Part shown: in pieces, positions 9,203-62,428 of the stretch
How positions within the stretch are numbered: the first letter of the stretch is position 1
Layout: every line of letters begins with the position of its first letter
Virus record (IMG/VR): IMGVR_UViG_3300045988_127492
Coordinates: 64,001 to 128,000 of that record
Reading direction: 5' to 3' (one strand)
From: a virus
DNA: 64,000 nucleotides
The notes under the pieces: generated by a model
What the model saw: only the letters and a program-made list of their open reading frames with translations
What the model was told of the DNA's origin: nothing
Database searches by the model: none
Program-made: the position numbers and the translations under genes

Positions 9203-9231
9203 GTATAGTCTCCTTTATATTTGTTCTTTTA

Positions 9232-9264
9232 GGTTTTACAAAATGGTTTATAGAATTAAAAATT
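9232..9264 (-). promoter_or_regulatory. Copy a of a conserved intergenic motif (sense TATAAACCATTTTGTAAAACC preceded by AATTTTTAA)
   Basis: The same 21-nt core recurs at 35945, 37570 and 37660, always just upstream of a minus-strand gene start. Confidence 0.5.
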
Positions 9265-10427: not shown

Positions 10428-11189
10428 TTATTCAAAAATACTTCCACTAATGCCTAGTGCATCAGCTAGCAATGATTTCAGAGGTTCTGATGGATTCTGA
10501 TCGTTCAACCATCCTAAATAACTATCTGGAATATTGGAGAGTAGTTCTCCTTTATATTTGCCGAATGGCATAAGATATGTTTCTGGCGTAGGTTTGAACT
10601 CCTCAATAAGTTCTTCTACTTCAGTTTCATCAAAAGATACGGTCAAATCCTTTCTTGAAGCTAAGTAATCTGCTAAGTGAACTATCATCTGACCTTTTGT
10701 TTCTGGTAGTGGTAGGTCATCTTTGCTTCTTTTATCAGTATTCCACTGCCCCATGTGTGAGGCACAACAATCTGCAATATAATCTAATTCTTCATCTGGC
10801 AACCATTCATATCCCTTGTAAGCTTTTACTCTCTCAGCTATAAGTAAAGGATGTTTGAATAAAGTATACTGACTGCCATTACGTCCTAGTTTTTCATCAT
10901 CATGATTCATAATTGCCGTTCGTAATAAGTCTCTTTCCCTTGATGTGAACAGGTTCTTTATACAGTCAATAGCTAACATATGATTTAAAAATCTAGTTGC
11001 TCCTTTTACATGTTTGGCAAGTCCCATAAATCCAACTGTATAATCAGGGTGGTATTTATTCGTACTTGAAGCAGACACTTGCCAGAAATATGTAGGTGCA
11101 GTCTCTAATAATTCAATACAAAATTCTTGGATATCATCGTTTTCAAACAGCTCTAGCTCTTCCTTAAAAAATCTCTCTGCTAATGTCAT
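10428..11189 (-). CDS. HD-domain phosphohydrolase with C-terminal DUF3820-like tail
   Basis: 253 aa. YHPDY...NHDDEK...HLADYLA His/Asp pattern; C-terminal MPFGKYKGELLSNIPDSYLGWL. Confidence 0.5.
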   Translation of the reverse strand: MTLAERFFKEELELFENDDIQEFCIELLETAPTYFWQVSASSTNKYHPDYTVGFMGLAKHVKGATRFLNHMLAIDCIKNLFTSRERDLLRTAIMNHDDEKLGRNGSQYTLFKHPLLIAERVKAYKGYEWLPDEELDYIADCCASHMGQWNTDKRSKDDLPLPETKGQMIVHLADYLASRKDLTVSFDETEVEELIEEFKPTPETYLMPFGKYKGELLSNIPDSYLGWLNDQNPSEPLKSLLADALGISGSIFE

Positions 11190-12481
11190 ACAGCTTCCTC
11201 CTCAATAATTTCTTGTGCTTCTTCCATATCTGGTGCATCAGAGGAATCTTTGATCAATCCTTCAAGAACCTTGAAAGTGAAGTTCTTGTGTTTATAAGCT
11301 TTAAAGCTGCTTCTATTATCAATTCTTACAACTACACCTTCTCTAACATGTGTCGCTCCTATTGGATCAGGCCCGTCATAGTATTTCTCTACTCGAGCCA
11401 TTAAGTCTTCCTTAGTAGTAAACAAGAATTTGTCAAATTCAGGTACGTGTTCTACTGCTAAACGATTACACCAATTCTTTACTTCTTCCCACGGAATCTC
11501 TGTTACAACTCCGTCTTCATTGGTCATGGTCATTCTATAGACATAAATATCAGAAGTGCCTGGTGTACATCCATAAGAGAATATTGTTTCATCTCCGTAA
11601 AGTTTTCTAACCTCTTTATCTTTGATTTTAGTATTAGAGCAAGTTCCCATAATAGTCTGATCGGTTCCATCAACCCATCCTACTATTTCATAGAATATTT
11701 CCATTCCTTTAGGGAGTCTGCTAGAAAAGTAATCATGATATTTTTCTCTAAATTTATTAGATCCATAATATCCACCCTCATATTCTTCTAACACAACTCT
11801 TCTCGTACCAGAAACAGGCTTCCATCCTTTAATGATAGGTGCTGGTTTATGGAATAACTTCTGTAAGAAAGTTCTCTTGCCCTCAGTGACTTTAATAGAG
11901 TTTCCGGTACGACCTGATGTTCCATGCATTTTTAAAGTAATGTAGCAAGTGTCTCCTGGTTTAAAGGCATCAAGATTATAAGCTAATTGCTCTGTATCTA
12001 CATGTTCCATAAAATATGGGAAGTTGTCTTTTAGATTTTTACTTTTATGTTTTGGATAATTAGACTTTCTATGATTTGATTTAGGAATATATTTTTGACA
12101 GATAACAGTACCATCAAGTACAGTAATTTGATCGCCTAAAGATAATTCATCTACATTTGTCCATTTATTAAGGGATTCTACGGGTAATACTAATCCTTCT
12201 GATTTCTCACCTCGAAGTCTCATTGCTTTGATGTTTCTTTTTACAGGATCAAGATACCCACCTGTAGTTGTCCCATCTTCGTTTTTAATACGCAGTAAGT
12301 TGTTTTCTTTTGCAAATTCTTCACCAAGCTGTCCGTCAACCGGGAAGAACACAACTTTCTGCCCTTCGTAATAACTTAAATCAACAATAACCGTATTTCC
12401 AAAGACGGTCGCAAGCTGGAGCCTATCAGCATTGTTGTGTTTACGAAGTTGCTTTAGCTCAGTAATGTAAGCGCAATACAT
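11186..12481 (-). CDS. ATP-dependent RNA ligase (Rnl-type nucleotidyltransferase with N-terminal OB-like domain)
   Basis: 431 aa. Motif I LKMHGTS (KxxG lysine), FYEIVG, and motifs IV/V EGVVVR...AYKHK. Confidence 0.6.
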   Translation of the reverse strand: MYCAYITELKQLRKHNNADRLQLATVFGNTVIVDLSYYEGQKVVFFPVDGQLGEEFAKENNLLRIKNEDGTTTGGYLDPVKRNIKAMRLRGEKSEGLVLPVESLNKWTNVDELSLGDQITVLDGTVICQKYIPKSNHRKSNYPKHKSKNLKDNFPYFMEHVDTEQLAYNLDAFKPGDTCYITLKMHGTSGRTGNSIKVTEGKRTFLQKLFHKPAPIIKGWKPVSGTRRVVLEEYEGGYYGSNKFREKYHDYFSSRLPKGMEIFYEIVGWVDGTDQTIMGTCSNTKIKDKEVRKLYGDETIFSYGCTPGTSDIYVYRMTMTNEDGVVTEIPWEEVKNWCNRLAVEHVPEFDKFLFTTKEDLMARVEKYYDGPDPIGATHVREGVVVRIDNRSSFKAYKHKNFTFKVLEGLIKDSSDAPDMEEAQEIIEEEAV

Positions 12482-22085: not shown

Positions 22086-23116
22086 ATTTCTCCTAAAATA
22101 ATTCTTTCATTGACAGATGCCACAAACGCTTCTATGGATTTATAATCTGGTTTATCTGGTAACGCAGTATTTTCCGCATCATATTTAAGTCTTTTCTCTA
22201 ACTCATCTATCATTTCAAAAAACTCTGGAATAGGCTGATAATTTTCATCCAAATATTTTCCATTGCGTAAATCCATAAGAAGTTCATGATCATCTTCTCT
22301 ATATGTAATAATTTTTCCTTTCTCAAGAATGTCAAAACACATAAGATACAGTCTCACTAAATGACACATATGCTTTCCCAACTTATTGTGATCTATAGCA
22401 TGTTTGTTTCTCTTCCCAATTTTAGAATAGTCTTTAACAATACTTTTCATTTCAGCCCACATTCCTTGATAATCATTCAAAGGATAGTGCTTTAGGTGAA
22501 TATCCATAAACACTTCTGTTTCATAGTCTTCCTGAACACCTTTATCTACATAAAGCTTTATTGCATCTTCTGGAAAATTGAAATACTTTTCAGGGAAAGT
22601 ATAAAAAGCATTCATAATACTATTAAGAACATGCTGCATTCTTTCTTCTTGTCCCAATTTCCTGGCAGCTTTATTATCGAGCCTTCTTAGCTGACTTGTA
22701 GCATAGCCTCCAAAAGAATAGATCGCTTTCTTAGATAAAAACATTTCAGCATTATCAAGAAGTTCTTGACCAATTGGATGAATATAAAGATAATGTTCTG
22801 GCTTCAATCCTATCAGCTCAATTGTGTTTGGGTTGCAGTTTGACAATAGAGTTATCAATTTATTAAAAGAATAGATTGTTGTATCTGTTGTTTCTTCCGT
22901 TACCTGATCAAAATTATGTGTAGGAATCAGGATTTCTTCTCTTTTATTTAAAGCACAACCCCTAATATCCAGATCGGAGTTTTCTGTATCTGTACCATAA
23001 GCATGAGACCCACCTAAGCCTAATAGAATTATGTTACTCCCCAGGTGCTCGTTCGCTCTTAAGAAATCATAGTGTTCACTTTTCAACAATTTTTTGATTT
23101 TCTCTATTTTCATCAA
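22082..23116 (-). CDS. Pol-beta-fold nucleotidyltransferase, RlaP-like
   Basis: 344 aa. LGLGGSHAYGTDTENSDLDIRG (GS...SDxD) nucleotidyltransferase signature. Confidence 0.55.
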   Translation of the reverse strand: MMKIEKIKKLLKSEHYDFLRANEHLGSNIILLGLGGSHAYGTDTENSDLDIRGCALNKREEILIPTHNFDQVTEETTDTTIYSFNKLITLLSNCNPNTIELIGLKPEHYLYIHPIGQELLDNAEMFLSKKAIYSFGGYATSQLRRLDNKAARKLGQEERMQHVLNSIMNAFYTFPEKYFNFPEDAIKLYVDKGVQEDYETEVFMDIHLKHYPLNDYQGMWAEMKSIVKDYSKIGKRNKHAIDHNKLGKHMCHLVRLYLMCFDILEKGKIITYREDDHELLMDLRNGKYLDENYQPIPEFFEMIDELEKRLKYDAENTALPDKPDYKSIEAFVASVNERIILGEI

Positions 23117-23594
23117 TTTCTCCTGTTGAATAATAATAATTTACTATATCATCTAAGTTCCTTATCTCTTTTTCTAACTCTGCACACTTTTTCTTGCTAT
23201 CACATGCCCATAACTGTTTTCGTAGCTTCGTTGCAACCTCAGATACCTTTTCTGCTTCTTCTGTTTTATCAATGGTTTCTATGACATCAACTTCAATTGG
23301 TTCTCCGCAAAATGGACAGAATTTAAGAGGGTAATAATAGTCATCAGGCCATGTATCTCCCCAGTCTTGGACTTCTTCGCTTACGTAAAAGAAAATTCCA
23401 AAAGTTTCATTACTTTCGTAATCACAGTCTTGGCATACTACACTTTCACAAGTTCTACATAGGTAGGCATCAGGGTATTCATTAGAAATAATTATTCTAG
23501 GATTTTCTTCCAATGCCTTACAGCAGAACTTTGGTTTATAATACTTATAAGATGTGTTGCCATCTACAATTATTTCCTTTGCTTTTATTTTCAT
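23076..23594 (-). CDS. Cys-rich hypothetical protein
   Basis: 172 aa. Several CxxC pairs (CRTCESVVCQDC, CPFCG). Confidence 0.5.
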   Translation of the reverse strand: MKIKAKEIIVDGNTSYKYYKPKFCCKALEENPRIIISNEYPDAYLCRTCESVVCQDCDYESNETFGIFFYVSEEVQDWGDTWPDDYYYPLKFCPFCGEPIEVDVIETIDKTEEAEKVSEVATKLRKQLWACDSKKKCAELEKEIRNLDDIVNYYYSTGEIDENRENQKIVEK

Positions 23595-23603
23595 GTTTAC
23601 ACC

Positions 23604-23987
23604 TCAGATAATCTGTAAGTTTTCGTCACCAATAAGCCATGCAGAATCTAAAATAAAATTTTCATATGGATCACCATTGTCGTTCCAGAATTCATCTGAT
23701 CCAACTTCCCAATCACCCAATGTTCCAGCATTAAAGTTACCGTATAAATAATCTGCCACATATTCTAAAAACGCATCTACAGCCTTATCATAATCTTCTT
23801 TTCTTATTGACTCTTCTACATCTGGCTCAAGATCAATCCATTTATGCTGCTCAATCAAAAAAGATTTAGCATTGTCTCTTACTTTCAACAGTGAGTTTTT
23901 AATGTCTGTCAATGTTGCATCTTTCTTTTTTGCAATGATGTAACTTGAAGATGAGCTATTAGTAACAAACCCTCTTCTTATTTTCAT
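23604..23987 (-). CDS. MKIRxGFVTNSSSSSF-family protein (copy 2)
   Basis: 127 aa. N-terminus MKIRRGFVTNSSSSSYIIAKKK is shared with four other ORFs; the remainder is unrelated and acidic. Confidence 0.6.
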   Translation of the reverse strand: MKIRRGFVTNSSSSSYIIAKKKDATLTDIKNSLLKVRDNAKSFLIEQHKWIDLEPDVEESIRKEDYDKAVDAFLEYVADYLYGNFNAGTLGDWEVGSDEFWNDNGDPYENFILDSAWLIGDENLQII

Positions 23988-24383
23988 TATCCATCTCTCC
24001 CTTCTCCTTCAGCAACTTCTATATCAGCAAATCCATTTTCTTCCGTAATGGCATCAATCGCTTCATTCATAGAAAAATTATAATTATAATTAACATCACC
24101 CCACTCATCTTCATAGGCCTCATTGCTATCCATAATTACAATATATTCTCCATCAGGATGCTTTTCTAAAATGTCATCAACTCCATAAATTGTTGCTCCG
24201 CACCAGCTAGCCCCGAGACCACCACACCAATCTTTTTCATCATTTACGCCGGCAACATCTAATACATTAAGATTAAATTGATCAATTATCTTCTGAACTT
24301 TTTTCTTTGTCAGCGATTCTTGCAAAACAGATAATGAAACTGCTAGAGCTTGAATTAGTGACAAATCCTTTCCGTATTTTCAT
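23987..24383 (-). CDS. MKIRxGFVTNSSSSSF-family protein (copy 1), frame-disrupted at an A-run
   Basis: The ATG at 24383 (SD GGGAGG) encodes MKIRKGFVTNSSSSSFIICFARIADKEK... and stops at 24282. The 125-aa track ORF (TTG start at 24364) is the +1 frame of the same gene. The two frames join across GAAAAAAG. Confidence 0.5.
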
Positions 24384-24584: not shown

Positions 24585-25730
24585 TTACATATCCTCCATT
24601 GAATAAATTACTCTCTCTAAGCTTCTTTTGGATTTAAAGCATTTCTTAAGTAAACACCACATAATTGCCTTTTCAACATCGTCTTCATCTTCCCAATCAT
24701 TTAAGACTACAGAAGTTTGAGTTCCATCTTTAAAGCCAACAGTTGTTCTAATCTTTTCTGTAGAAATATCTCTTGTTCTTCCTACAAATGCAATATCGTC
24801 TTTCGATAAGGTTTTACAAACGTGTTTATCAGTTTTGTTTTTAGGTACAATATATACATCAATACCCAAAGCATCTTTAATCTGACGTTCGCAACTTCTA
24901 AGCTCCTCTCCAATAGTATGTTCTTTTTCTTTTTTCGCTACTACTTTTTCAAGTGCTTTTAAGATTTCATCTGGTGACATGTTCATATCTGTTTTCTCCT
25001 CTTTATAATCAAAATATGGCATTGGTTTCAGTTTAAACTCATTCTTCTCATGTAAACGATCAATTCGTCTTTTTACTTCTGGATCGTCACATACTCCTGT
25101 ACGAATATATCTATCTAATACTGCATAGGTGAATCCAAAGTTATCTTCATCTGACTTGCCGCATAAACCATCTGCTGGCGTTTTCTCTACATATTTTTTA
25201 GGCAATCTTAAATAATGACCAATTGCTACAACTTCCTTTTTTACAAAAGGAGCTAATGGAGCTAAATCTCCTGCTCCGTCACCATCACGAGTAAAATATC
25301 CAATATATATTTCACTAAGATTTCCAGTATTGACTACTCTTCCATTATGAGACTGTGCTACCCCGCGTAAAACAGCCATTCTTAATCTTGGAGCAAGATT
25401 AATCAGGGTCTGATCTGATACATCCAGTGCAAGATCAATCTGATCAATGATATCATCATAAGCATATCCAATATTAATAGTAAGATAATCAATACCTAAT
25501 ACGTGCTGGCAGATATCATACGCCACATCTATATCATCCTGTTTGTAATTTGGCATAATTACTCCGAGGACTTTGCTTGGTCCGACAGCTTCCACACATA
25601 ACTTAGCAGCTACTAAAGAGTCAACACCGCCGGAAATACCTACTATAAAGTTACATTCTGGGCCATTTTTCTCTCTCCAATCTCTGATCCACTGAATGCA
25701 ATCATTTGTTGCTTTTTCTACATTAAACAT
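24585..25730 (-). CDS. nadE: NH3-dependent NAD+ synthetase with an extra C-terminal domain of about 140 aa
   Basis: 381 aa. PP-loop GISGGVDS plus a NadE-like core ending near residue 240; the rest has no recognisable motif. Confidence 0.75.
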   Translation of the reverse strand: MFNVEKATNDCIQWIRDWREKNGPECNFIVGISGGVDSLVAAKLCVEAVGPSKVLGVIMPNYKQDDIDVAYDICQHVLGIDYLTINIGYAYDDIIDQIDLALDVSDQTLINLAPRLRMAVLRGVAQSHNGRVVNTGNLSEIYIGYFTRDGDGAGDLAPLAPFVKKEVVAIGHYLRLPKKYVEKTPADGLCGKSDEDNFGFTYAVLDRYIRTGVCDDPEVKRRIDRLHEKNEFKLKPMPYFDYKEEKTDMNMSPDEILKALEKVVAKKEKEHTIGEELRSCERQIKDALGIDVYIVPKNKTDKHVCKTLSKDDIAFVGRTRDISTEKIRTTVGFKDGTQTSVVLNDWEDEDDVEKAIMWCLLKKCFKSKRSLERVIYSMEDM

Positions 25731-27187: not shown

Positions 27188-28654
27188 TTAATGTTCTCCG
27201 TTTAATCTGTTTCTGATTTTTTCAAAACACTCATCATCATATGTTCCCCCATTAATGAACACTGTCCTTAATGCATCATCATATACAAGACTGTCATATC
27301 CATCTGCACACTGTAGTTCTCCATTTTCATCATAATAGATATAACAACATCCTTTATGAGATTTCTTTAAATGACTTGTATCAGTCTTCGGATCCTTATA
27401 AATCATGACTGGTTGTCCATTAACTTCTCCGAACGTAGCTTTCATAGCAATTCCAAACATATCTCTAGTTACAACGACCATACGTCCATCAGGTTCTACG
27501 ACCGCTGAAAAACAAAAAGCTCCCACACCAAAAACAATATTGTTCGCGGCGAATCCTTTCTTCTCAAGTTCCTCCCATACCTGCCTTACATTATTAAGAG
27601 TACAGCCATCTCCATAGATAATTCCAATATGAGGGTCCAGTACTTTATATCCTTTGCTATTCACTGATCCTTCAAATGTGTTCCAGAGTTTTTCAATTGT
27701 CTTTACTGAAATTTCTACCATATTTCCACTGTCCGGACGAACCAGAAGCTTACCGTTATGCTGCATAATTTCTTCTTTACAAGCTGGAAGAATGTTGTCA
27801 ATCATATTCCAGTAATCATATGTATCAGATACCATACTGAATGATGCATTAGGATAAAGCTCTGTAAGCAGTCTCTTCACAAATGTAATTTCATCTCCGT
27901 CTACGGCGAAGTTTGAAGCCATAACTGAGTGTTCTGTTGAGATTGCTCCAATTCCAATACCTTCTGTATAACAATCAGCATCGTAATATTTGTCCAAATA
28001 ATCAATTGCTGGGATTGTGCTGGTTTTATCGAATGATAATAACCATGCGGCAGAACATCTTTTAGCTTCTTCAATACAGGACATTCCTCTCATTCCAAAG
28101 TCAGAGCAAGCTAAATTGGGTTTTAAAGAGTCATCACAAGTCTTTTTGTAATAGAAATTAGCCAACTCTCTGTACATATGTCCGATTGTCGCATGAGCAC
28201 ATGGCTTCCAGAGTTCTACCTGCAGGATACATTCAATCCACTGTACAACCCATGCAAAGTCTGGATGTGTATTTGTGATCTCGATACACGGTACCCCCAT
28301 CGGAACCAGTGTTCCCTCCGGTAATGCGCGGATTTGAATTGGAAGATATCCTAATTCGTGGAGTTTAAGGATTGGAGAAATATCGTAATTTCTTTCCCCT
28401 AACTGGATATCCATACTATATGTATAGAGTTCCTGAATTTCGTCAGTATTCAACTTGAAAAAATCCCTTTTGAAATATTTAACAAGATACTCTTTAATAA
28501 AAGCCTGCAGTCCGAAGAAAACCATATGATCTTGCTCCTTTAACATTGATCTTCTCGGAGTCCAATAAGAGACTAACTTCGTAAGTCCCTTCGGATAGAT
28601 TTTATTATGGATTTGCTTATAAGTGTCACTTAATAAAATTGCAAGTGTATTCAT
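27188..28654 (-). CDS. NAMPT-family phosphoribosyltransferase (NadV-like; candidate Namat of NARP1)
   Basis: 488 aa. N-terminal LSDTYKQIH, YWTPR, and length and overall pattern of the nicotinamide phosphoribosyltransferase family. Confidence 0.75.
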   Translation of the reverse strand: MNTLAILLSDTYKQIHNKIYPKGLTKLVSYWTPRRSMLKEQDHMVFFGLQAFIKEYLVKYFKRDFFKLNTDEIQELYTYSMDIQLGERNYDISPILKLHELGYLPIQIRALPEGTLVPMGVPCIEITNTHPDFAWVVQWIECILQVELWKPCAHATIGHMYRELANFYYKKTCDDSLKPNLACSDFGMRGMSCIEEAKRCSAAWLLSFDKTSTIPAIDYLDKYYDADCYTEGIGIGAISTEHSVMASNFAVDGDEITFVKRLLTELYPNASFSMVSDTYDYWNMIDNILPACKEEIMQHNGKLLVRPDSGNMVEISVKTIEKLWNTFEGSVNSKGYKVLDPHIGIIYGDGCTLNNVRQVWEELEKKGFAANNIVFGVGAFCFSAVVEPDGRMVVVTRDMFGIAMKATFGEVNGQPVMIYKDPKTDTSHLKKSHKGCCYIYYDENGELQCADGYDSLVYDDALRTVFINGGTYDDECFEKIRNRLNGEH

Positions 28655-35944: not shown

Positions 35945-35976
35945 AGTTTTACAAAATGGTTTATATGTTAAAAATT
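35945..35976 (-). promoter_or_regulatory. Copy b of the conserved intergenic motif
   Basis: Sense AATTTTTAACATATAAACCATTTTGTAAAACT, ending 20 nt before the ATG of the AAA+ gene. Confidence 0.5.
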
Positions 35977-36880
35977 AGTGACCATTGACATCTGCTTCAT
36001 GTAATAACATTACATCTGAAAACATTTTGTCTCCGATCAATCGTTTATCTTTATTTCTTGCTCTTCTTGATTGAGCCCATGATAAATATGGATGCATATG
36101 ATAATAAATCAAATTAGCTATATAAAAGATATCAAACATATCTTTCCCCGTAGTTACATCAGAGAAATCGCAAGATGTCAAAAATTCATATGCTCCAACA
36201 CAATGATGCTGATAATAGTGACAGTAATCATCCTCTTCTCCTTTTTTATTGATTCTTGATTTAGTAAATAATTTTCCTATATCATGAACCCAAGCTGCAA
36301 CCCATAAATTAGAGTCTTCTGTTGGAACTCCTGCTGAAACCTTTTTCAGATGTCCGTAAAGAGTCAAGGTATGATGTGGATTTTCCTGATCAAAATCACG
36401 AGTCATATCTATTAAATCATTCAAATCTTTACAGTCATCCTGTACAACTCTGATTTCATTGAATCCTTCATGGCACATAGGCGGAGAAAACGTTTTTCTC
36501 ATTCTAGTAATTACTTCGTCAGGCACTGGAATTTCTCTTTTTAAATTATCTTCCAAACACTTTTCATATGTTTTTAAGAATACAACACAGGTTTTATAAA
36601 CTTGTTTACTAACCTGCTTTAAAAAATGCACTCTCCTTTTCTTTACTAAGTTAGTAGCATCATAGATAACTGAATGAGTTTTCAGATCTTCCAGTATCCT
36701 TCGATGTAACTCTTCAAATACTTTATTATTATCTGAATCATCAAAATTATCTCCGTACATTTCTCTTCTGAGTTTATCAGATGAATGTAGTATATACTCC
36801 GGATTAGCTTCTACATAGGCCTTAGCCCAAGTACTCTTACCAGAAGCAGGAAGTCCTACTAACATAATCAATTCATTCAT
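35975..36880 (-). CDS. P-loop polynucleotide-kinase-like domain fused to an HD phosphohydrolase
   Basis: 301 aa. GLPASGKST Walker A with a kinase-type N-half; C-half has WVHDIGK...HH...H of HD domains. Confidence 0.6.
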   Translation of the reverse strand: MNELIMLVGLPASGKSTWAKAYVEANPEYILHSSDKLRREMYGDNFDDSDNNKVFEELHRRILEDLKTHSVIYDATNLVKKRRVHFLKQVSKQVYKTCVVFLKTYEKCLEDNLKREIPVPDEVITRMRKTFSPPMCHEGFNEIRVVQDDCKDLNDLIDMTRDFDQENPHHTLTLYGHLKKVSAGVPTEDSNLWVAAWVHDIGKLFTKSRINKKGEEDDYCHYYQHHCVGAYEFLTSCDFSDVTTGKDMFDIFYIANLIYYHMHPYLSWAQSRRARNKDKRLIGDKMFSDVMLLHEADVNGH

Positions 36881-37627: not shown

Positions 37628-37656
37628 AGTATATCACAGTCATTTCATCTTGTCAA
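37628..37656 (-). promoter_or_regulatory. sigma70-type promoter P2 (TTGACA-17 nt-TATACT)
   Basis: -35 at 37651-37656 and -10 at 37628-37633. Motif copy d (37660-37680) is immediately upstream, overlapping the last codons of ligA. Confidence 0.6.
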
Positions 37657-39689
37657 CATGTTTTTACAAAATTGTTTATAAAATCTTTTTCTGAAATAAT
37701 CGGCACACCAAGCTGTGTAGCCTTTACATTTTTACTGCTCTTTGATGTTGTATCATTATTAATAAGGTAGCTAGTCTTTTTAGTCACAGAGCCTGTCACT
37801 TTGCCTCCCAGTGATTCTATCTTCTCTACCAACGCAACCCTATTGGTGAACTCAGTGAGTGTCCCAGTAATGCAGAACGTTTTTCCCTTTAAACTATCTT
37901 CTACAATTTGTTGAGGAATCTCTTCAAACTGAAATTCTGCTGCAAGTTCATTTATATATCTTTCATTTTCTTCAAAATAATTTTTTAGAGAAGATGCTTT
38001 CGCGAATCCAAAATCCTCCAGACATGTGAAATCATACTGAGAATTCATATCTTCAATGAAACTGTCAAAAGCTGTTTTTAATCCTTTTTCTCTTGCTCTT
38101 TTCTCTTCGATATTATTTAATTGTTTACTAACATTACGACCTATTAAAGGTATCGACAACCCATAAAGGAATTTAGGTAACGTTGTTTTACGGCATTTTT
38201 CTATTGATTCCAGAATTTTATCAACTTTCTTTGCACCTAATCCTTGTAGTGTCAGCAACATTTCTCTACAATTCTTTAAATAAAATAAATCTATTGGCCC
38301 TTTAATAAACTCTTTCTCTATTAAAAGATTCAAGGTAGATTTAGAAAGCCCAGTAATATCATGCGCTTCTTTACTTACAAAAGTACACAATTCACCAAGA
38401 AGTTTTCCCTTGCACTCAAGGTTCATACATTGAAGTTCCTCTGTTTCGTTCCCACCAATAACCTTTGTATGTCCACCACAAATAGGACATTTATCTGGAA
38501 CTGTAAACAAATTATTTTTGTTTCTAGTCAGGTTCTCCGCAATCTGCGGAATGATCATATTAGCTTTATATACAGTGATCGTATCCCCTACAGATAACTC
38601 ATAGCTTTTGAAAATACTTACATTGTGTAAACTAGCTCTCTCAACGATGGTATCATCTATCTCAACCGGATCAAACACTGCTACGGGTGTTAACTGACCA
38701 GTCTTTCCCATGCTCCATTCTACGTTTCTGATCACTGTTTCAAACTTATCATCTGCAAATTTATAAGCCAATTGAGAACGAACATGGTGTGATGTTTCTC
38801 CTAGGCTTTCGCCATAGGCAATATCATCATATGAAAATACGATTCCATCAATAGGAACATCTTTTTCTCTTGCAGTCTCTCTAAGGATTCTAATATCTTC
38901 TTCAATATTATCAACCTTTACCCAAGGAACCACTTCAAATCCAAGAAGTTCTAATATCTGCAGTCTTTTCATAAAGCTATTACCATCTATGCCGCGAACC
39001 GCCTTCCAAGCAACAAAATTAATTTTTCTTTCTTTTGTAATAGAGCTATCAAGCTGCCTGACGGAACCAGCAGCTAAGTTCCTAATATTCTTAATGCCGT
39101 TCTCCTTGATATATTTTTCTAATTCTTCACCAAAAAGACCTTTTCTTTCTCCTTCTTCTTTCAACTCAATGTCTTTCAGTTCTTTAAGATGAATGTATTG
39201 ATGAATTTCCATAATAGCTTCTCCATCTACTACCACCTCATCTTTATACGGAATTTCTTTCGGAAGATTTACAAAAGTGTTTACTGTATGTAAAACATCT
39301 TCGCCAATAACTCCATTACCTCTAGTCTCTGCTGCAACTAATTTACCATCTATATATTTTACTGAAATAGTAAGCCCATCCATTTTTAGCATAGCCAATC
39401 CAGGCAAACCATTCATAAAGTTTTCAACATCACTTATATCTTTTGTCTTGTCTAAAGACAGCATTGGATGATCGTGTTCAACTTTTTCCAACTCACTAAC
39501 TGTTTCTGAGCCAACACTAATAGTGGGACTGTTGGCTAAAATAATACCTGTAGCATGTTCAAGTTCTTTAAGTCGATCATATTTTTTATCATATTCATAA
39601 TTAGAAATTAGAGAAGTGTCTTCCATATAATATGCATGAGCATATATACTTAATTCTTCCACTAATTCACGCATTTCCTTTAAAAGCAC
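37653..39689 (-). CDS. ligA: NAD+-dependent DNA ligase
   Basis: 678 aa. Adenylation motif KMDGLT, Ia-domain YYMEDTSLISNYEYD, CxxC...C zinc finger (CPICGG...C...C), HhH region, C-terminal BRCT-like GKTFCITGTL. Confidence 0.9.
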   Translation of the reverse strand: MLLKEMRELVEELSIYAHAYYMEDTSLISNYEYDKKYDRLKELEHATGIILANSPTISVGSETVSELEKVEHDHPMLSLDKTKDISDVENFMNGLPGLAMLKMDGLTISVKYIDGKLVAAETRGNGVIGEDVLHTVNTFVNLPKEIPYKDEVVVDGEAIMEIHQYIHLKELKDIELKEEGERKGLFGEELEKYIKENGIKNIRNLAAGSVRQLDSSITKERKINFVAWKAVRGIDGNSFMKRLQILELLGFEVVPWVKVDNIEEDIRILRETAREKDVPIDGIVFSYDDIAYGESLGETSHHVRSQLAYKFADDKFETVIRNVEWSMGKTGQLTPVAVFDPVEIDDTIVERASLHNVSIFKSYELSVGDTITVYKANMIIPQIAENLTRNKNNLFTVPDKCPICGGHTKVIGGNETEELQCMNLECKGKLLGELCTFVSKEAHDITGLSKSTLNLLIEKEFIKGPIDLFYLKNCREMLLTLQGLGAKKVDKILESIEKCRKTTLPKFLYGLSIPLIGRNVSKQLNNIEEKRAREKGLKTAFDSFIEDMNSQYDFTCLEDFGFAKASSLKNYFEENERYINELAAEFQFEEIPQQIVEDSLKGKTFCITGTLTEFTNRVALVEKIESLGGKVTGSVTKKTSYLINNDTTSKSSKNVKATQLGVPIISEKDFINNFVKTC

Positions 39690-47682: not shown

Positions 47683-48630
47683 TTATCCTATACAAATAAC
47701 ATTGTGAGTATCTTTTTTATACATATAAATCTTAGAAGTCAGGAAATCTTCCTTTGGAGTAGCTTCTTCTAAAGTGTCTTTTAACACCGATTTCAGGTCT
47801 TCTGGATCTACTCCCCCTGCCTTATGTATCATTACTTCATGAATACTTGTGAATACCAGATATAAATCTGAATCTAACAAATCTGCCAATTTTTCAGCCA
47901 CTCCTGGTAAGAAAATAGCTATGGCTCCATTTGTCTTTATTGTTGTACTGATACAATTTCCACTGTATCCAGCACTAATTTCACATTCTCTGTTTGGACT
48001 CATAAAATCATCACCATTATAGCTTGGATCAAAAATCATTTTCTCCCACTTATAGAGTCTTGGTGGAGTCATTCGGTAGGTGTTATCAATTGCTTCTTTG
48101 AATAAGTTATCCTCATTCAGTTCCGGATGATCTTTCTTCCAATGTTCTAACATTGCTTTTCGAATCTTTGTACTTGTAACACAACCTTCCTGTTCTGAAA
48201 CCTGCGCATAAGTGACAAGAGCAATATCACCAACAATCCTATGAATGGTATCCTGTAAGTCTGCAGCATTTTTATCTTTATTAAGTAAGCGTACAAATAA
48301 ACGTTTTTTTGCTACTTCATAATCTCTTAATCCTTTGGTCTGATCATAAACATTTGCATCTTTGATTCTAAGGATATCTTCAATGACCTTTGCCAGAATG
48401 TTTGCAAATGTATCACCTTCTTCATAGGACTTAAACAATTCCTGTGTATAAAGCCCACAGACCTCCCAGGCATCGTCATGCTCTGCAAACTTTACCAACA
48501 GTCTGTCTCCTACAGGCGCAAACCTCCCGCCTTCTTTCTCAAAAGAAATATTCTCTCTTGGAATGCTAATAGCTGCACTAATTTCATTTTTAAGTTCTTC
48601 TACAAATATTTCATAGTTCATCATAAACAT
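47683..48630 (-). CDS. hypothetical protein
   Basis: 315 aa. Confidence 0.55.
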   Translation of the reverse strand: MFMMNYEIFVEELKNEISAAISIPRENISFEKEGGRFAPVGDRLLVKFAEHDDAWEVCGLYTQELFKSYEEGDTFANILAKVIEDILRIKDANVYDQTKGLRDYEVAKKRLFVRLLNKDKNAADLQDTIHRIVGDIALVTYAQVSEQEGCVTSTKIRKAMLEHWKKDHPELNEDNLFKEAIDNTYRMTPPRLYKWEKMIFDPSYNGDDFMSPNRECEISAGYSGNCISTTIKTNGAIAIFLPGVAEKLADLLDSDLYLVFTSIHEVMIHKAGGVDPEDLKSVLKDTLEEATPKEDFLTSKIYMYKKDTHNVICIG

Positions 48631-48645
48631 ACCCTCACTTTCTCG

Positions 48646-49419
48646 CTAACCCATATGGTTGCATGAATACTCTGCCATTTCACTTAACTTTTTAACTATA
48701 AAATCTGGTATATAACCACATTCAGAGCAGATACAAATCTTTCCTAAAATATACAAACATGCTTGATCCCTTGGAATTTCTTTTCCCATGAACTGTTGTT
48801 TAGTTTCTTGGCATTCACCTTCATAACAGTATTCGTTCTGTGGACAGCTATCACAGTCATATTCCAGAGCATTTTCAATCCAAGGAAAATACCAAGCTAA
48901 GATATCAGATTCAATCCCGTTGCCATTGTCACCTGTACATTCCGTTATTCCTGTACTGAAGTCCAAAGGGATATATGGATCATTAGAAGAAAAATCCCTT
49001 ATGTAAAAAGGTGCACATTTATTCATGCCTGACTGCTGCATTTTTTGAATCCAAAACTGTTTATACTCTTCATAGGATTCACACTCTGTCCAAGAAAGTT
49101 CTTCTGGACTTGGTAAATCATCATACCAAGTGGTTCCAAACATTGCTTCTAACTGTTTATTAATATTATCAGTGCATCTCCAGTCATACCCGTTTTGCTG
49201 ATGAATGCTCTTTCCTCTATTAGTATTAACAATTTCAAATACTGCCGGATAGTATTTCTCTACATAGTCATACATTTCTGAACAGGATTTATAATATTGT
49301 TTATAAAGTTTTCTCACTTCCTTATATACCGAATCAATAGTTACTGTGTTGTCGTTTGCCTTACCAATAATAAAACTTGAAGAACTACTATTGGTCACAA
49401 AACCATTACGAATCTTCAT
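48646..49419 (-). CDS. MKIRxGFVTNSSSSSF-family protein (copy 3) with Cys-rich C-terminal part
   Basis: Start at MKIRNGFVTNSSSSSFIIGK (ATG at 49419, SD GGAAGGGGTGG). Confidence 0.6.
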   Translation of the reverse strand: MKIRNGFVTNSSSSSFIIGKANDNTVTIDSVYKEVRKLYKQYYKSCSEMYDYVEKYYPAVFEIVNTNRGKSIHQQNGYDWRCTDNINKQLEAMFGTTWYDDLPSPEELSWTECESYEEYKQFWIQKMQQSGMNKCAPFYIRDFSSNDPYIPLDFSTGITECTGDNGNGIESDILAWYFPWIENALEYDCDSCPQNEYCYEGECQETKQQFMGKEIPRDQACLYILGKICICSECGYIPDFIVKKLSEMAEYSCNHMG

Positions 49420-49987
49420 TGGTACCACCCCTTCCTATATCATATGCTCTTTTACAGTAGACCCAATCATCACATAATGAACCTGCCATTTCTTTGTAGC
49501 ACCCTTTGCACAAGTGTTGTCTGTCTTCTACTATTTTATTAAATTGGTCATAGTCTACATAGAATTCTTTCCGGTAAGTTCCATCTTCATCTTTAACTTT
49601 TCCTATATAACCACCATTTGCCATATCATAAGCAGTTTGGTCTATATATGGATGTAAGAAATCATAAATATCCTGTCCCAGATCATCTCCATCATACATG
49701 TACCCCTTCATGCAGAAGTTTATAGAAAAGCACCAGCCCGTGTAGTTATCAGTAGGACTCTTATAGAAATCCAAATAATATGCTGGATATAGCAGTCTAT
49801 AATGATCTGCCCATTTAGATTCCTTAAATTCTTTACATAACAGTTTATCCCAAAAATCTTCTTCGGAGCATTTTTTTGTCAAAAGGCTCAGATCATGAAG
49901 CAAGTCTTCCGGAATATCTTTTTTTAGTCCGAATGCTAAATTCCCCTCATAATAATTCCCCACTTTTCCACATCCTTTCGAACACAT
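49406..49987 (-). CDS. hypothetical protein
   Basis: 193 aa. Confidence 0.5.
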   Translation of the reverse strand: MCSKGCGKVGNYYEGNLAFGLKKDIPEDLLHDLSLLTKKCSEEDFWDKLLCKEFKESKWADHYRLLYPAYYLDFYKSPTDNYTGWCFSINFCMKGYMYDGDDLGQDIYDFLHPYIDQTAYDMANGGYIGKVKDEDGTYRKEFYVDYDQFNKIVEDRQHLCKGCYKEMAGSLCDDWVYCKRAYDIGRGGTNEDS

Positions 49988-50276
49988 AAATAGAATTCTC
50001 TGTTTCTACTGTTACCTCAGTTACTTTTACTGTAATGCCTACTACACGACTTGTGTATAATACTAATCCTTCGAGAGAGGTTCCATCAGAATCACATACG
50101 TAGCTAATTATCATAGGAGCGTTCCCTGTAATTTTATTTACATCAAGGTCTACTATCCGTCCTATTCTTAATGGATAACGCCCATCCGTTCTTTTGATTC
50201 CTCTAATGCCACAACTGCCAGAATGTAATATTTCTTTTATTTTATATTGTGTATTCTTTTTTCGCAGTGTTTCCAT
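49947..50276 (-). CDS. hypothetical protein
   Basis: 109 aa. Confidence 0.45.
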   Translation of the reverse strand: METLRKKNTQYKIKEILHSGSCGIRGIKRTDGRYPLRIGRIVDLDVNKITGNAPMIISYVCDSDGTSLEGLVLYTSRVVGITVKVTEVTVETENSIYVFERMWKSGELL

Positions 50277-50285
50277 ATGGTCTCC

Positions 50286-50744
50286 TTAATGATGACTAAT
50301 AGTAGCAAGACAACATTTCATCTTTGGAACAACATAATGTTCAAGTTCTGAGTATTTAAGTCCATCATTGTCTGAATAACTGATTTCCACAAACACAGAG
50401 AGACCTTCCATTGCTTTTTCTAAATTAGACACTTTATTTGTAATTGCTTTATTAAGTTCTTTCTGAAATTCTTCTGTTTCTCGAACTTTAAATCTCTCGC
50501 TATAAGGGATATTTAAAGTATTTTCTACTTCCCATCTGGTATAATAACGAATTTCTTCTGTATATCCCCCCAGAACATCTTCTTTATCCAATCTTGTAGC
50601 TTCCGTTACATCTCTCAGAATCTCTTCAAAATACTCTTTAAGATTTTCTGCTTTCAGTTCTTCTTTGACGCTCTCTTCACTTTTAAAGCCAAGGATGAAG
50701 CTACTACTGCTACTGTTAGTTACAAATCCTTTTCTAATTTTCAT
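50286..50744 (-). CDS. MKIRxGFVTNSSSSSF-family protein (copy 4)
   Basis: Start at MKIRKGFVTNSSSSSFILG (ATGA overlap with the upstream copy, SD GGGAGGA). Confidence 0.6.
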   Translation of the reverse strand: MKIRKGFVTNSSSSSFILGFKSEESVKEELKAENLKEYFEEILRDVTEATRLDKEDVLGGYTEEIRYYTRWEVENTLNIPYSERFKVRETEEFQKELNKAITNKVSNLEKAMEGLSVFVEISYSDNDGLKYSELEHYVVPKMKCCLATISHH

Positions 50745-51025
50745 GACCAATCCTCCCATTCAACGTCTTCACCATCTACACCAATTAACCGTAAGAACTT
50801 ACTCATATTAAAATTGTCCATAATAGTAAAACCACGAATTGATTGATCCGTTTCAGTAATACTCCATCTGTCCCACTCATCATAATAAGAACTATCCATT
50901 TCTAATTCTTTTGCAACTTTAATATGATTTTTAATCTTTTCAATCTGATCAGCTGTTAAATTACTTTTTGCAATAGTAAAACTGGATGAAGAACTATTAG
51001 TTACAAAACCGGTTCTTAATTTCAT
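50741..51025 (-). CDS. MKIRxGFVTNSSSSSF-family protein (copy 5)
   Basis: 94 aa. MKLRTGFVTNSSSSSFTIAK. Confidence 0.6.
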   Translation of the reverse strand: MKLRTGFVTNSSSSSFTIAKSNLTADQIEKIKNHIKVAKELEMDSSYYDEWDRWSITETDQSIRGFTIMDNFNMSKFLRLIGVDGEDVEWEDWS

Positions 51026-54117: not shown

Positions 54118-54436
54118 TGTTTATCCTTTCATATAGTTTTCTAAACTTTACAAAATCTTCTTGTTTACCTCCATTGTCAGGATGAGCTTTAACCATTGCA
54201 TAATGAACAGCTTCTTCTATTTCTAAAGATGGTGTAATAATTTGGGGCTTTTTAAGTTTTATTGCAAGCCTTTTATTTTCTTCACATACACATATTATAT
54301 TGAAGCGTAAAGAGTCATTCTGTCTTTTTAATTTATCTACTTCCATTTTCAAATTTATGTTTCCACTTATACAAACAAACAAAATTATTAATGTTGCTAC
54401 CAATACAACACTCAACCCTACTATTTGTACTAACAT
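54104..54436 (-). CDS. membrane-anchored J-domain (DnaJ-like) protein
   Basis: Start at MLVQIVG (54436, SD GAGGAGAAAG). TM helix and coiled coil, then ...VHYAMVKAHPDNGGKQEDFVKFRKLYERI with the HPD tripeptide. Confidence 0.55.
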   Translation of the reverse strand: MLVQIVGLSVVLVATLIILFVCISGNINLKMEVDKLKRQNDSLRFNIICVCEENKRLAIKLKKPQIITPSLEIEEAVHYAMVKAHPDNGGKQEDFVKFRKLYERINNESK

Positions 54437-55494
54437 AAATCTTTCTCCTCTTTTGTACATAAGACGATTTCTCTTCTGATCGGACATCCACCTAAGCAAT
54501 CACACTGACGGCTACAGCCTCTACAAGAATTCCTGAAATGACTTCTGAAATCATCGAATACATCTGAATCCCATGCTTCCTGAATAGTGTGTTCATTAAG
54601 ATCAACTGCCCACTTAAGTTCCTGATTATCAAAGCTACATGGCAGCATTTTCATATCTGACGTAATGTAACCAGAAAATCTTGCTCCTTCACACGGTTCC
54701 AGAGTAGAATTTAAAATCTCTTCTGTAAAATTCAACAGTCCAGGCACAGAACATGAATCAAATCCAATCTGAAATTTATAATCATGTTTATCAATCAAAG
54801 AGAAAAATTCTTTGACTCTTTCATCATCAGGAGATAAGACATTTGCCTGAGTTCCTAAGCCTACTGGTTTATGTAGCAAGAAAATCACTGCATTAATACC
54901 ATCTGGAAAATCTTCACGCTGCAAATGTTCAATAGCTTCGTCAATAGAATTTCGACCAAGAACATAATGAATATTAGTAGTAACACCAGCAGCTACTAAC
55001 ATGTTAATTGCTTTTTCAGTATACTCACTTCTGTACCAAGAAATAGCTACAGCGCCACAATATCCTTTGCAAAGGGCTACGATTTCATCAGTAAATCCTA
55101 AACCTGAGCTTGTAAAATTTGGTACAATCCCTTGTGAACGACAGTATTTAAGAATTTCTTCAAAGTTCTCATGCTGATCCACATCGCCTCTACCTCCAAG
55201 AGCAAACTGGAATGTTTTTCCTTTACATTCATCTACTATTCTCTTGAAATTCTCAAGGGACATATTAGGCTCCTGTGTGTGTAATCCATTCTGATAACAC
55301 TGAACTCCTGACTGAATACACAAACCAGATGCCCCATGAACGCAATGTCCCATAACACCAATATCTAACAAAGCAGGAAAATTTCTCATAAATGGTTCCT
55401 TTCCTGTTGTCAAATCATCAGACCGGATATAGAACCCTGTCTTCGGATTAAATGTTTCTACAAAGTTATTTTTCTTGTCGTAATATCTATACAT
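54430..55494 (-). CDS. radical-SAM/SPASM-like Fe-S enzyme (non-canonical N-terminal Cys triad)
   Basis: 354 aa. C-terminal CRGCSRQCDCLGGC SPASM/twitch-type cluster motif, GGRGD in the place of GGEP, and an N-terminal C-x8-C-x6-C (HCVHGASGLCIQSGVQC) instead of CxxxCxxC. Confidence 0.5.
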   Translation of the reverse strand: MYRYYDKKNNFVETFNPKTGFYIRSDDLTTGKEPFMRNFPALLDIGVMGHCVHGASGLCIQSGVQCYQNGLHTQEPNMSLENFKRIVDECKGKTFQFALGGRGDVDQHENFEEILKYCRSQGIVPNFTSSGLGFTDEIVALCKGYCGAVAISWYRSEYTEKAINMLVAAGVTTNIHYVLGRNSIDEAIEHLQREDFPDGINAVIFLLHKPVGLGTQANVLSPDDERVKEFFSLIDKHDYKFQIGFDSCSVPGLLNFTEEILNSTLEPCEGARFSGYITSDMKMLPCSFDNQELKWAVDLNEHTIQEAWDSDVFDDFRSHFRNSCRGCSRQCDCLGGCPIRREIVLCTKEEKDLC

Positions 55495-56608: not shown

Positions 56609-57685
56609 CTACTCAATAAGCAGTACATCAACTGCATTTCTAAATTTCTTTAACAACTCCGGATTAGCACAAACAATTTTCTTTCTGGTTACTCTACTTT
56701 TTCCATGCTTGTTAATATATCTGGTTTCTAAATTATGCCAGTTGATAGAAGAATTCATTTCTTTCATCTTCTGATAAACTTTTCTATATGTAACCATGTT
56801 TCCATTGCTCTTATCTTTATATTTTTCTGCTAAAGGAATAATAATAGAATCAGTTGCATCCTGATTACAAACTGGTTTATACTTTTCGTAGAGATCTCCT
56901 AAAGCTGCACTAAAGATAGATCTAAGAGTATCATTTGCATAGACAACATCATAAGTGCTAAACTTACTTACCGGATTATGTTTTGCTTTGTAATCTTTTA
57001 CTTCCTGATCCCAACAGATACCATAGTTTTTATTCATATATTTATATACTGCACCCATAACTGAGCCACGGTCTGAAAATCTATCACATGTAGTAAGTGC
57101 ATCAATCATCTGGTACATATCATTTTTCCATTTCTTACAGGGGTCTTCTACCTTTTTCACTGGTAATGCGACAGCAGGAGCTTTTGATTCTAACAATACA
57201 GAAACTACTTTACCCATATCCGCATAAACTCTATCTACTTTTTCCTGTAGAATTTCAATCTGTTTACTAAAATCAGGCATCTGTAACTGAATGATATTAG
57301 AATTATCAACTTTCTTTTCTAAGAAAGCTGCTGCCAGTACATCTTTTGCTTTGAGCTGGTATGATACAAGCTTTTCAGTAATTCCTGGGGAATCTTTTTT
57401 CATTGCTGGAGTGATTGAAATTTTAGTTAGCCATAAAGGTAAGTAATCCAGTTGTAAACATAAAACATTTTGATTCCCACCATTTGTAAGGAGGGTAAAA
57501 TTTTGTACCCCCTTTGAAATTACTGAATCTGTTTGCATTTTTCTTCTTTCATATTTGATCCGGTTGTCGTCGAGTCCAATAGCCTCACACACCCAACGAG
57601 CACCGACCCAGACATTCCCTTCTGGATCCTGTGCCGCTCTAAGAATATCTCCCTGAAAATTTATTTCTTTAGCTACTAAATCCAT
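56609..57685 (-). CDS. phage antirepressor (P22 Ant/Bro-N-like N-terminal domain)
   Basis: 358 aa. INFQGDILRAAQDPEGNVWVGARWVCEAIGL resembles the AR N-terminal domain. Confidence 0.55.
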   Translation of the reverse strand: MDLVAKEINFQGDILRAAQDPEGNVWVGARWVCEAIGLDDNRIKYERRKMQTDSVISKGVQNFTLLTNGGNQNVLCLQLDYLPLWLTKISITPAMKKDSPGITEKLVSYQLKAKDVLAAAFLEKKVDNSNIIQLQMPDFSKQIEILQEKVDRVYADMGKVVSVLLESKAPAVALPVKKVEDPCKKWKNDMYQMIDALTTCDRFSDRGSVMGAVYKYMNKNYGICWDQEVKDYKAKHNPVSKFSTYDVVYANDTLRSIFSAALGDLYEKYKPVCNQDATDSIIIPLAEKYKDKSNGNMVTYRKVYQKMKEMNSSINWHNLETRYINKHGKSRVTRKKIVCANPELLKKFRNAVDVLLIE

Positions 57686-61441: not shown

Positions 61442-62428
61442 TTACGCTGCTGATTTAATATCTATAATGTCACAAACAGAATAATACTGATAATGACTTA
61501 AAACGATACCAATTGCTTCCATTTCATTTACTGCAAGAACTTCACAACATATTTCTTCTTCCTTGTATCCTAGAAGATATACATGAAAGTATTTCTTAGC
61601 TGCTTTTTCATTTGAAAACATAAGGACACCAGAATCTGTATAAGCTGTTGTGTAATCTGTGCTAATAGGTGATGTCTCTTCTTCATCATCCCAGTCTTTC
61701 CACCAGTTTCCATATTTACCATAGCCATAAGCAGCTTCGATGTACTCAAAAGGCTCTTCACATGGTAAAGCAAGAATCTTTTTCGCTTCTTCAATCGTTG
61801 ATAAAAGAGCTTCTACATTGATGGTTTCTGTTATTGTGTGCTCATTAAAGTATCCAGATGAAAGATTCACTGCCGCTACTTGCAATACAGGAGCAATTAT
61901 TGAAATATCAGACACTGAACCCCATTCTGTTTTGAAATAACCAGTTGATTCAATAAACTCTTTAAAATCTGGGTTATCACAAGAGTAAAATACACAATCG
62001 TTTGTTCCTCTACGGTCAATTTCAATTATGTAATTTATATTATTGTTTACTACATAATCACTCTTTGCAAACTTCCCAGATCCTACACAACCAATCTCTT
62101 CATCTTCTGTAAATAATACAGAACAATGATAGTCCTTAATGATCTGTAAGATAGCGTAGATTCCACACCGGTCATCTCCCCCAATTCCTTGAGGGGAAGA
62201 CATAATTGCTCCGTTATATTTGATTTTCTGGACACATTCTTTATGTACTGTGTCCATATGAGCAACTAAGAGTACTGGGAAAGTTCCTTCTGCATAAAGG
62301 AAACCATCTTCTGACTTAGGCTCATAACCTGCTGCTTCCAATTTAGCTTCCAGATGTCTCTTGAGAGTCATCTGTTTCATTTTTAAGATTTCTTCAAATT
62401 CTACAATTCTGTATTTATTTTCATTCAT
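61442..62428 (-). CDS. M20/M28/M42-type metallopeptidase-like protein
   Basis: 328 aa. LLVAHMDTVH, GGDDRCG and FTEDEEIGCVGS (His/Asp/Glu-Glu metal ligand pattern). Confidence 0.5.
   Translation of the reverse strand: MNENKYRIVEFEEILKMKQMTLKRHLEAKLEAAGYEPKSEDGFLYAEGTFPVLLVAHMDTVHKECVQKIKYNGAIMSSPQGIGGDDRCGIYAILQIIKDYHCSVLFTEDEEIGCVGSGKFAKSDYVVNNNINYIIEIDRRGTNDCVFYSCDNPDFKEFIESTGYFKTEWGSVSDISIIAPVLQVAAVNLSSGYFNEHTITETINVEALLSTIEEAKKILALPCEEPFEYIEAAYGYGKYGNWWKDWDDEEETSPISTDYTTAYTDSGVLMFSNEKAAKKYFHVYLLGYKEEEICCEVLAVNEMEAIGIVLSHYQYYSVCDIIDIKSAA

Follow-up and report, generated by a model that had tools for sequence, protein, structure and literature searches.

Five genes in a 64,000-nucleotide stretch of viral DNA (positions 64,001 to 128,000 of IMG/VR virus record IMGVR_UViG_3300045988_127492, hereafter the window) encode proteins, p1 to p5, that open with the same 16 residues, MK[IL]RxGFVTNSSSSS[FY], and continue into dissimilar bodies. 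All five genes lie on the minus strand. The shared start defines a very large family of small proteins, is encoded beside the gene for a divergent protein with a SPASM domain in phages and bacteria alike, and covaries with that protein at one position. We consider it probable that the shared N-terminus is a portable cassette for docking and modification by this protein, a dedicated and divergent radical S-adenosylmethionine (radical-SAM)/SPASM enzyme, which would act in trans on all the proteins that carry it.

To establish the size of the motif family, a 33-residue profile was built from the five window N-termini and used in an exhaustive hidden Markov model (HMM) search, with matches at E <= 1e-3 counted as representatives of clusters at 50% identity. 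The search returned 16,804 representative proteins, mostly 80-290 residues long, in which the motif stands almost always at residue 1; the few proteins with an internal match contain the motif twice, apparently by read-through from one tandem gene into the next. In their sources the members are named just "hypothetical protein", and some come from Blautia. In proteins selected through the enzyme, a set unbiased with respect to the motif, the consensus was M K(100%) [IVF] R(100%) [TS] D(98%) F V T(99%) N(100%) S S S S S F. Two familiar signals were considered and rejected: a glycyl-radical motif (RVxG[FYW]) for "IRxGF", since residue 6 is Asp in nearly all of this set and Gly is peculiar to the present phage lineage, and a type IV prepilin signal (G|FTLIE, with Gly at -1 and Glu at +5) for "KGF", since the motif has neither a conserved Gly nor a Glu, and a run of five Ser occupies the place of the hydrophobic stretch.

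An HMM search of this kind had been proposed in a preliminary description of the window made by eye; it gave a large family with the motif at residue 1, and no named family was matched. The sole profile-library match was PHROG 7397, which has no assigned function and covers just part of the 16,804-cluster family. All five window proteins matched it, at E values from 8.8e-6 to 2.5e-3; the matches covered mostly the N-terminal 24-48 residues, and in p1 residues 1-120. Neither the five proteins nor a 124-residue bacterial form matched anything in Pfam, NCBIfam or PADLOC, no Pfam family was common to any two of 88 diverse family members, and comparison of the motif profile with the PDB gave no significant match (best E 0.29). 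Other searches were similarly bare: tblastn of p1 against deposited phages found nothing, blastn of the region found a single match, of 343 nt in an unannotated faecal phage, and a word-indexed homologue search with N-terminal alignment returned only fragments of already known orthologues. Searches of the literature turned up nothing relevant on the motif string or on phage radical-SAM/SPASM systems or phage systems for ribosomally synthesized and post-translationally modified peptides (RiPPs).

Genes for motif proteins keep company with one enzyme gene. Scans of viral contigs for the motif yielded 158 loci with 448 motif open reading frames (ORFs), up to 8 per locus. The commonest non-motif neighbour, present in 52 of ~98 diverse motif-selected viral loci, was a protein of ~359 residues whose homologue in the window is the SPASM protein, encoded 3.4 kb upstream of p3 on the same strand. 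When viral loci were fetched through the enzyme, all 38 with enough downstream DNA had co-oriented motif genes downstream. Motif genes were likewise always co-oriented in 53 loci with an enzyme at 46-72% identity, in arrays of up to 8 that often begin 2-60 nt past the enzyme stop codon. In species-representative bacterial genomes, a scan for the enzyme located 363 loci, from Lachnospiraceae, Oscillospiraceae, Erysipelotrichaceae, Anaerolineaceae, Bacteroidaceae, Synergistaceae and others; 80 of these, chosen by the enzyme alone and without motif bias, were kept. A motif ORF was present in 76 of these 80; in ~48 a motif protein of ~124 residues is encoded directly upstream of the enzyme, and in 24 one is encoded just downstream. 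Apart from these the sole recurrent neighbour was a small helix-turn-helix (HTH) gene. What is conserved is thus the pair of motif protein and enzyme. Such adjacency and co-orientation of substrate genes with the enzyme gene is the arrangement found in radical-SAM/SPASM systems.

Two further features of these loci deserve mention. In a Hungatella metagenome-assembled genome, a 621-residue ORF (L213, ~7986-9850) apparently joins the SPASM enzyme to a 262-residue motif protein (MKYRTGFVTNSSSVSF...), and in a locus 98% identical to it (L214) enzyme and motif protein are separate genes; the long ORF may be either a natural fusion or the product of a frameshift. Genes for RNA repair (RNA ligase, kinase-HD, RlaP nucleotidyltransferase) are found repeatedly in the vicinity of the motif/SPASM system in other phages. 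We considered them as a possible part of the system, but they do not occur in the bacterial two-gene cassettes and are therefore treated as synteny.

Motif and enzyme have also changed together at one pair of positions. Residue 6 is Gly in all five copies of the window phage and Asp as the family norm. It is uniform within loci (102 with all Asp, 74 with all Gly, 3 mixed), and the five window body subfamilies are also found with Asp6 elsewhere, so that the paralogues of the window lineage changed in parallel, despite their different Gly codons. In the enzyme, residue 172 (..GV[K/T]TNIHYVLG) is Thr in the window; among 116 sequences first scored as D-type it was Lys in 107, Arg in 4 and Thr in 5, and one of the five Thr172 cases, L243, in fact has Thr6. 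Thr172 was found in all five lineages without Asp6, namely the window clade, L213/214, L016, L034 and L243, and for each of the four lineages with Gly6 the enzyme's closest relatives were Lys172/Asp6 (L243 lies outside this check). Made for these four lineages, our own Fisher estimate comes to ~1.5e-5, which correction for the ~350 columns screened raises to ~5e-3. Lys or Arg172 thus goes with Asp6, and Thr172 with Gly6 or Thr6 in five lineages, which is the co-evolution looked for between an enzyme and a shared recognition motif. Read from the sequences, its simplest explanation would be a salt bridge between enzyme Lys172 and motif Asp6.

The enzyme itself matches Pfam SPASM (PF13186) with an E value of 3.2e-5 (24.5 bits against a cut-off of 21.5). 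Eight C-terminal Cys, of the kind that in SPASM/twitch domains serves auxiliary Fe-S clusters, are conserved, C248, C268, C286, C324, C327, C333 and C337 in 100% and C346 in 97% of sequences. The N-terminal part has a Cys triad, C51..C59..C66-Y-Q, in the position where a radical-SAM core would have its CxxxCxxC-type triad; the three Cys are conserved, but with the spacing C-x7-C-x6-C or CxCx3Cx3C. The protein also contains a GGxGD motif, to be set beside the GGE-like SAM motif of such cores. In NCBIfam, both halves gave sub-threshold matches to tungsten-cofactor maturase, MftC, NirJ2, PqqE and StsB, the scores of maturase models over residues 59-157 being far below their cut-offs. Profile comparison with the PDB gave weak matches to SkfB (the best, E 0.014, over the core), PqqE, anSME (E 0.07, in the SPASM region) and BtrN. 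The Pfam Radical_SAM model was not matched. The enzyme family comprises 4,045 clusters at 90% identity, labelled just "SPASM domain-containing protein". Just upstream of the SPASM gene region the window encodes a protein with a P22 antirepressor N-terminal domain (P22_AR_N, E 5e-19; 56609-57685, minus strand), and ~6 kb upstream of the SPASM gene a weakly matching M28/M42/M20-type aminopeptidase-like protein (61442-62428, minus strand), which is not among the recurrent neighbours.

The one homologue of the enzyme in deposited cultured phages is distant, at 27% identity. It occurs in Klebsiella phage KP15 (KP15_135; L281, 5818-7080) and in 167 other T4-like phage records, which include cultured phages of Klebsiella, Enterobacter and Escherichia. 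This homologue has CX7CX2C and a shortened C-terminal Cys region, and the records annotate it variously as hypothetical, radical SAM or Fe-S oxidoreductase. No NSSSSS-motif genes were present near it in KP15, the sole T4-like region examined, and T4-like phages are therefore not a ready experimental model; an experimental system must come from Lachnospiraceae prophages or from heterologous expression.

At the DNA level, a degenerate pattern for the 16-residue motif matched five times in the window and not once in 100 dinucleotide-preserving shuffles, and a six-frame scan revealed no sixth copy. This bears out the preliminary description, which had noticed five minus-strand ORFs with a near-invariant N-terminus at the coordinates in Table 1. 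Ser codons vary among the copies (AGY vs TCN), as do Arg and Gly codons. The Ser codon differences point to selection on the protein, with conservation of the amino-acid sequence and not of the DNA, and codon differences rule out a DNA-level repeat or gene conversion as the origin of the five copies. A purine-rich, Shine-Dalgarno-like stretch precedes each copy. The window has a G+C content of 34%, and nearly all its long ORFs, including all genes treated here, are on the minus strand. For p5, the motif start had been recognized correctly, but the gene is not the intact ORF first described: the motif ORF ends after 33 residues and the body resumes in another frame (ORF 24364..23987). Its orthologues in related phages are intact proteins of 131 residues. 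The window reads AAAAAA where the orthologues in L001 and L010 have AAAAA, and the extra A could reflect either a recent pseudogene or a homopolymer sequencing error. The gene directly downstream of p4 (23076-23594, minus strand) encodes a protein of 172 residues that is rich in Cys, has several CxxC pairs and matches nothing in Pfam; directly downstream of p1, in the same gene string, is a gene for a DUF5688 protein (E 1e-46; 47683-48630, minus strand).

Table 1. Motif genes, motif-coding stretches and the proposed partner enzyme in the window
Feature	Coordinates	Strand	Basis
Divergent radical-SAM/SPASM protein, 354 aa, proposed partner enzyme	54430..55494	-	Pfam SPASM, Cys pattern, linkage, covariation
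p1, 257-aa motif protein (MKIRNGFVTNSSSSSFIIGK...), Cys-rich, ends ...SECGYIPDFIVKKL..CNHMG	48646..49419	-	DNA pattern, ORF
p2, 152-aa motif protein, ends ...LEHYVVPKM..ISHH	50286..50744	-	DNA pattern, ORF
p3, 94-aa motif protein (MKLRTGFVTNSSSSSFTIAK...), acidic, without Cys	50741..51025	-	DNA pattern, ORF
p4, 127-aa motif protein (MKIRRGFVTNSSSSSYIIAK...)	23604..23987	-	DNA pattern, ORF
p5, motif gene broken by +1 frameshift	23987..24383 (397 nt)	-	ORFs, orthologue alignment
p1 motif-coding stretch (first 16 codons)	49372..49419	-	DNA pattern
p2 motif-coding stretch	50697..50744	-	DNA pattern
p3 motif-coding stretch	50978..51025	-	DNA pattern
p4 motif-coding stretch	23940..23987	-	DNA pattern
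p5 motif-coding stretch	24336..24383	-	DNA pattern
p5 frameshift site: A-run, one A more than orthologues	24299..24304 (about)	-	Alignment with L001 and L010

The bodies behind the motif were compared after removal of the first ~20 residues. BLAST found no match between the five window subfamilies, the proteins of the window and related loci fell into 11 clusters, and hhalign of subfamily alignments gave <5% probability for every pair of window subfamilies. The bodies are thus unrelated at the sequence level, as the preliminary description had claimed. The 83 full-length homologues of p1 are all unnamed. Several subfamilies can be told by their C-terminal ends (...LEHxxxP...SHH, ...SECGYIP...CNHMG, ...AEGEGRDG and ...IDxxLxY); another is marked by GxTxMDNF..., and the p3 subfamily has GxTxMDNFxM. 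In the p2 subfamily the final His is invariant. Patterns of this kind suggest that the free C-terminus of motif proteins matters. The very last residues are kept in each body subfamily (…SHH, …CNHMG, …DLxY, …GRDG and …NVG in P0118, P0123, P0159, P0226 and others).

AlphaFold2 models built from family alignments were confident for p1 (predicted local distance difference test score, pLDDT, 86; predicted template modelling score, pTM, 0.84) and p2 (pLDDT 92.5, pTM 0.83), with residues 1-11 of p1 and 1-10 of p2 below a pLDDT of 50. The two models have a common layout, in which a first strand right after the Ser run (SSSFII; residues 13-18 in p1) is followed by a variable helical middle and a C-terminal strand-helix-strand; the strands of p2 are at 13-20, 117-124 and 145-150. 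The low pLDDT of the most conserved part of the protein, residues 1-10 or 1-11, fits a segment that would become ordered only on a partner. Foldseek searches of both models against the PDB, and of the p2 model against BFVD, gave nothing better than E 0.06. A C-terminal module shared by p1 and p2, E[CH]xxxP ... [CS]xH[HM], had been spotted by eye; hhalign gave it 0.3%, and we keep it as a likeness of secondary-structure layout alone.

We propose that the first ~10 residues, flexible in the free protein, dock into the enzyme, and the covariation suggests that motif residue 6 would then lie against enzyme residue 172. Docking, we infer, leads to covalent modification, in which the enzyme would direct radical chemistry at one residue within the invariant F-V-T-N-S-S-S-S-S. 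Two reactions known from SPASM enzymes are candidates, an anSME-like conversion of Ser to formylglycine and a cross-link, for example an F7-x-T9 cyclophane, and we make no choice between them. The modified N-terminus, placed at the start of each body's first beta-strand, would be needed for the function of the body, and phages would have multiplied and diversified the bodies into paralogue arrays. We are more tentative in regarding the cassette as the site of an undescribed modification, installed by a non-canonical radical-SAM/SPASM enzyme and grafted onto thousands of small bodies; the phage arrays would then be arrays of modified effectors, possibly for host takeover or anti-defence. The preliminary description had offered two explanations of the motif, the first being a tag or handle on different cargos. 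The idea of a shared handle survives in spirit, in the linkage to the radical-SAM/SPASM enzyme and the covariation of residues 172 and 6. Its more specific forms, capsid targeting and a protease handle, do not, as neither a T4-like capsid-targeting sequence nor a conserved cleavage residue after the tag was found.

Several points weigh against the proposed docking and modification. First, the radical-SAM activity of the enzyme is not certain: its SAM-cluster Cys motif is non-canonical, Radical_SAM is unmatched and the NCBIfam matches are far below cut-offs. Second, the chemistry of the modification and its target residue are guesses, and the motif contains no Cys, which excludes within it the commonest SPASM cross-links, thioethers. 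Third, the covariation amounts to five lineages and a single column picked from ~350, and Thr172 also occurs in two Asp6 lineages. Fourth, about half of the motif-selected loci have no enzyme gene in the stretch fetched, and p4 and p5 are separated from the enzyme gene of the window by ~30 kb, which makes it necessary to assume action in trans. Lastly, shared ancestry of related phages could explain part of the linkage, although the bacterial two-gene cassettes speak against this.

The alternative that survives best, though we think it unlikely, is that the motif binds the radical-SAM/SPASM protein and stays unmodified. The small proteins would then be adaptors, regulators or inhibitors, or would offer the enzyme some other part of themselves, such as their C-termini (SHH, CNHMG, DLxY, GRDG). 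Linkage and covariation fit this equally well, several SPASM enzymes, MftC for example, act on C-terminal residues, and both the conservation of the extreme C-terminus within each subfamily and the C-terminal position of the last strand in the p1 and p2 models would agree with it. However, there is one enzyme per genome and the C-termini of the paralogues are quite different, leaving the N-terminal cassette as their sole common element. Furthermore, near-100% invariance over 16 residues, five Ser among them, is more than a simple docking strand usually needs.

Less plausible still is a reading that builds on the second explanation of the preliminary description. Here the motif would form the opening strand-loop of a common small fold that is active in its own right, for example as a Ser-rich ligand- or metal-binding loop, and the SPASM gene would be a mere syntenic neighbour. 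Part of this held, as the residues from 13 to 18 or 20 form the first body strand in both models, and the C-terminal strand-helix-strand of p1 and p2 carries conserved His or Cys. The rest did not: residues 1-10, with their low pLDDT, are not packed on the body in either model, the bodies have no profile-profile similarity, and no phosphate- or metal-binding or other known fold was matched. That motif and bodies might together map onto a known enzyme family or fold had also been considered at the outset, and nothing of the kind was found in Pfam, NCBIfam, PADLOC or the PDB. Synteny alone would moreover hardly account for the close, co-oriented pairing of the genes in unrelated bacterial genomes combined with the covariation of Lys172 and Asp6. 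Finally, a targeting or processing signal (for virion packaging like that of T4 internal proteins, as a protease site, or as a degron) is very improbable, for although the motif is confined to the N-terminus, is attached to varied cargos and is modelled as flexible, and an M28-like peptidase gene lies in the window, no residue is conserved after position 16-18 to give a cleavage consensus, the motif gene forms a two-gene unit with the enzyme in which HTH is the sole other recurrent neighbour and neither head genes nor a peptidase recur, and the window region holds non-structural genes of replication, NAD/nucleotide metabolism and RNA repair.

The docking and modification that we favour has two precedents among known systems. 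Like anSME/AtsB and the sulfatases, it would combine a radical-SAM/SPASM enzyme with a short invariant motif inside whole proteins, and the enzyme shows a weak profile match to anSME in the SPASM region. Conversion of Ser to formylglycine is known anSME chemistry, and Ser is thus a possible target. The differences are several: the motif is K-x-R-x-D-F-V-T-N-S5-F and not (C/S)xPxR, with no P/R pattern after any Ser; the match is weak; the motif is carried, in a fixed position at residue 1, by small unrelated proteins in their thousands; and the genes stand in phage arrays, with an enzyme of non-canonical SAM-cluster Cys spacing. The second precedent is the RiPP SPASM clusters (those of the sactisynthases SkfB and AlbA, of PqqE, MftC and StrB, and of enzymes that form three-residue cyclophanes, such as Xye/Fxs), in which one maturase gene is followed by one or more precursor genes that share an N-terminal recognition region. 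SkfB was the best PDB profile match of the enzyme, MftC, PqqE and StsB were among its sub-threshold NCBIfam matches, and F7-V8-T9 resembles what we take to be the aromatic-x-X pattern of cyclophane substrates. Unlike short RiPP peptides, the precursors here are 90-460 residues long with confident predicted structures; their conserved part is just 16 residues, probably both recognition site and target, and has no Cys; and no recognisable RRE/PqqD domain, protease gene or transporter gene was found.

With the capsid-targeting sequences of T4 internal proteins the motif shares the form of a short N-terminal tag on otherwise unrelated small phage proteins, but it differs in having no protease cleavage consensus, no link to head genes, bacterial two-gene units and a radical-SAM/SPASM partner. 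Maturase-plus-precursor clusters and protein maturation of the anSME type are known. What is new, in that it is not described in the libraries and literature searched, is a 16-residue cassette at residue 1 of thousands of folded proteins, its arrays in large phages and the non-canonical enzyme.

Other genes of the window, all on the minus strand, were noted in passing. An 875-residue P-type cation-transporting ATPase (E1-E2_ATPase, Cation_ATPase_N/C, HAD; 19458-22085) is an unusual auxiliary gene for what otherwise has the look of a large phage genome. A set of NAD genes (24585-25730, 27188-28654 and 37653-39689) encodes an NAD synthase with a ~140-residue C-terminal extension, a NAMPT-like nicotinamide phosphoribosyltransferase and an NAD-dependent DNA ligase. 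An RNA-repair-like set (11186-12481, 35975-36880 and 22082-23116) encodes an RNA ligase with a PHA02142 OB domain, an AAA_33 kinase-HD fusion and an RlaP-type nucleotidyltransferase. Outside the window, a Fusicatenibacter locus (L246) has ORFs that resemble a macro domain and Thg1 by eye only.

A family of at least 16,804 clusters, for which there is no Pfam or NCBIfam model and no solved structure, is now paired with a dedicated enzyme family, and the pairing is concrete and testable. It predicts that one enzyme acts on one 16-residue tag and that Lys172 contacts Asp6, and it makes p3, with its 94 residues, a convenient minimal substrate. Should the tag prove to be modified, the radical-SAM modifications of proteins would gain a new member, and a substantial fraction of the small genes that lack annotation in large anaerobe phages would acquire a role; another possible use of the cassette is as a portable tag for enzymatic protein modification. 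If the proposal is true, large gut and environmental phages would possess, during infection, a protein-level counterpart of RiPP biosynthesis.

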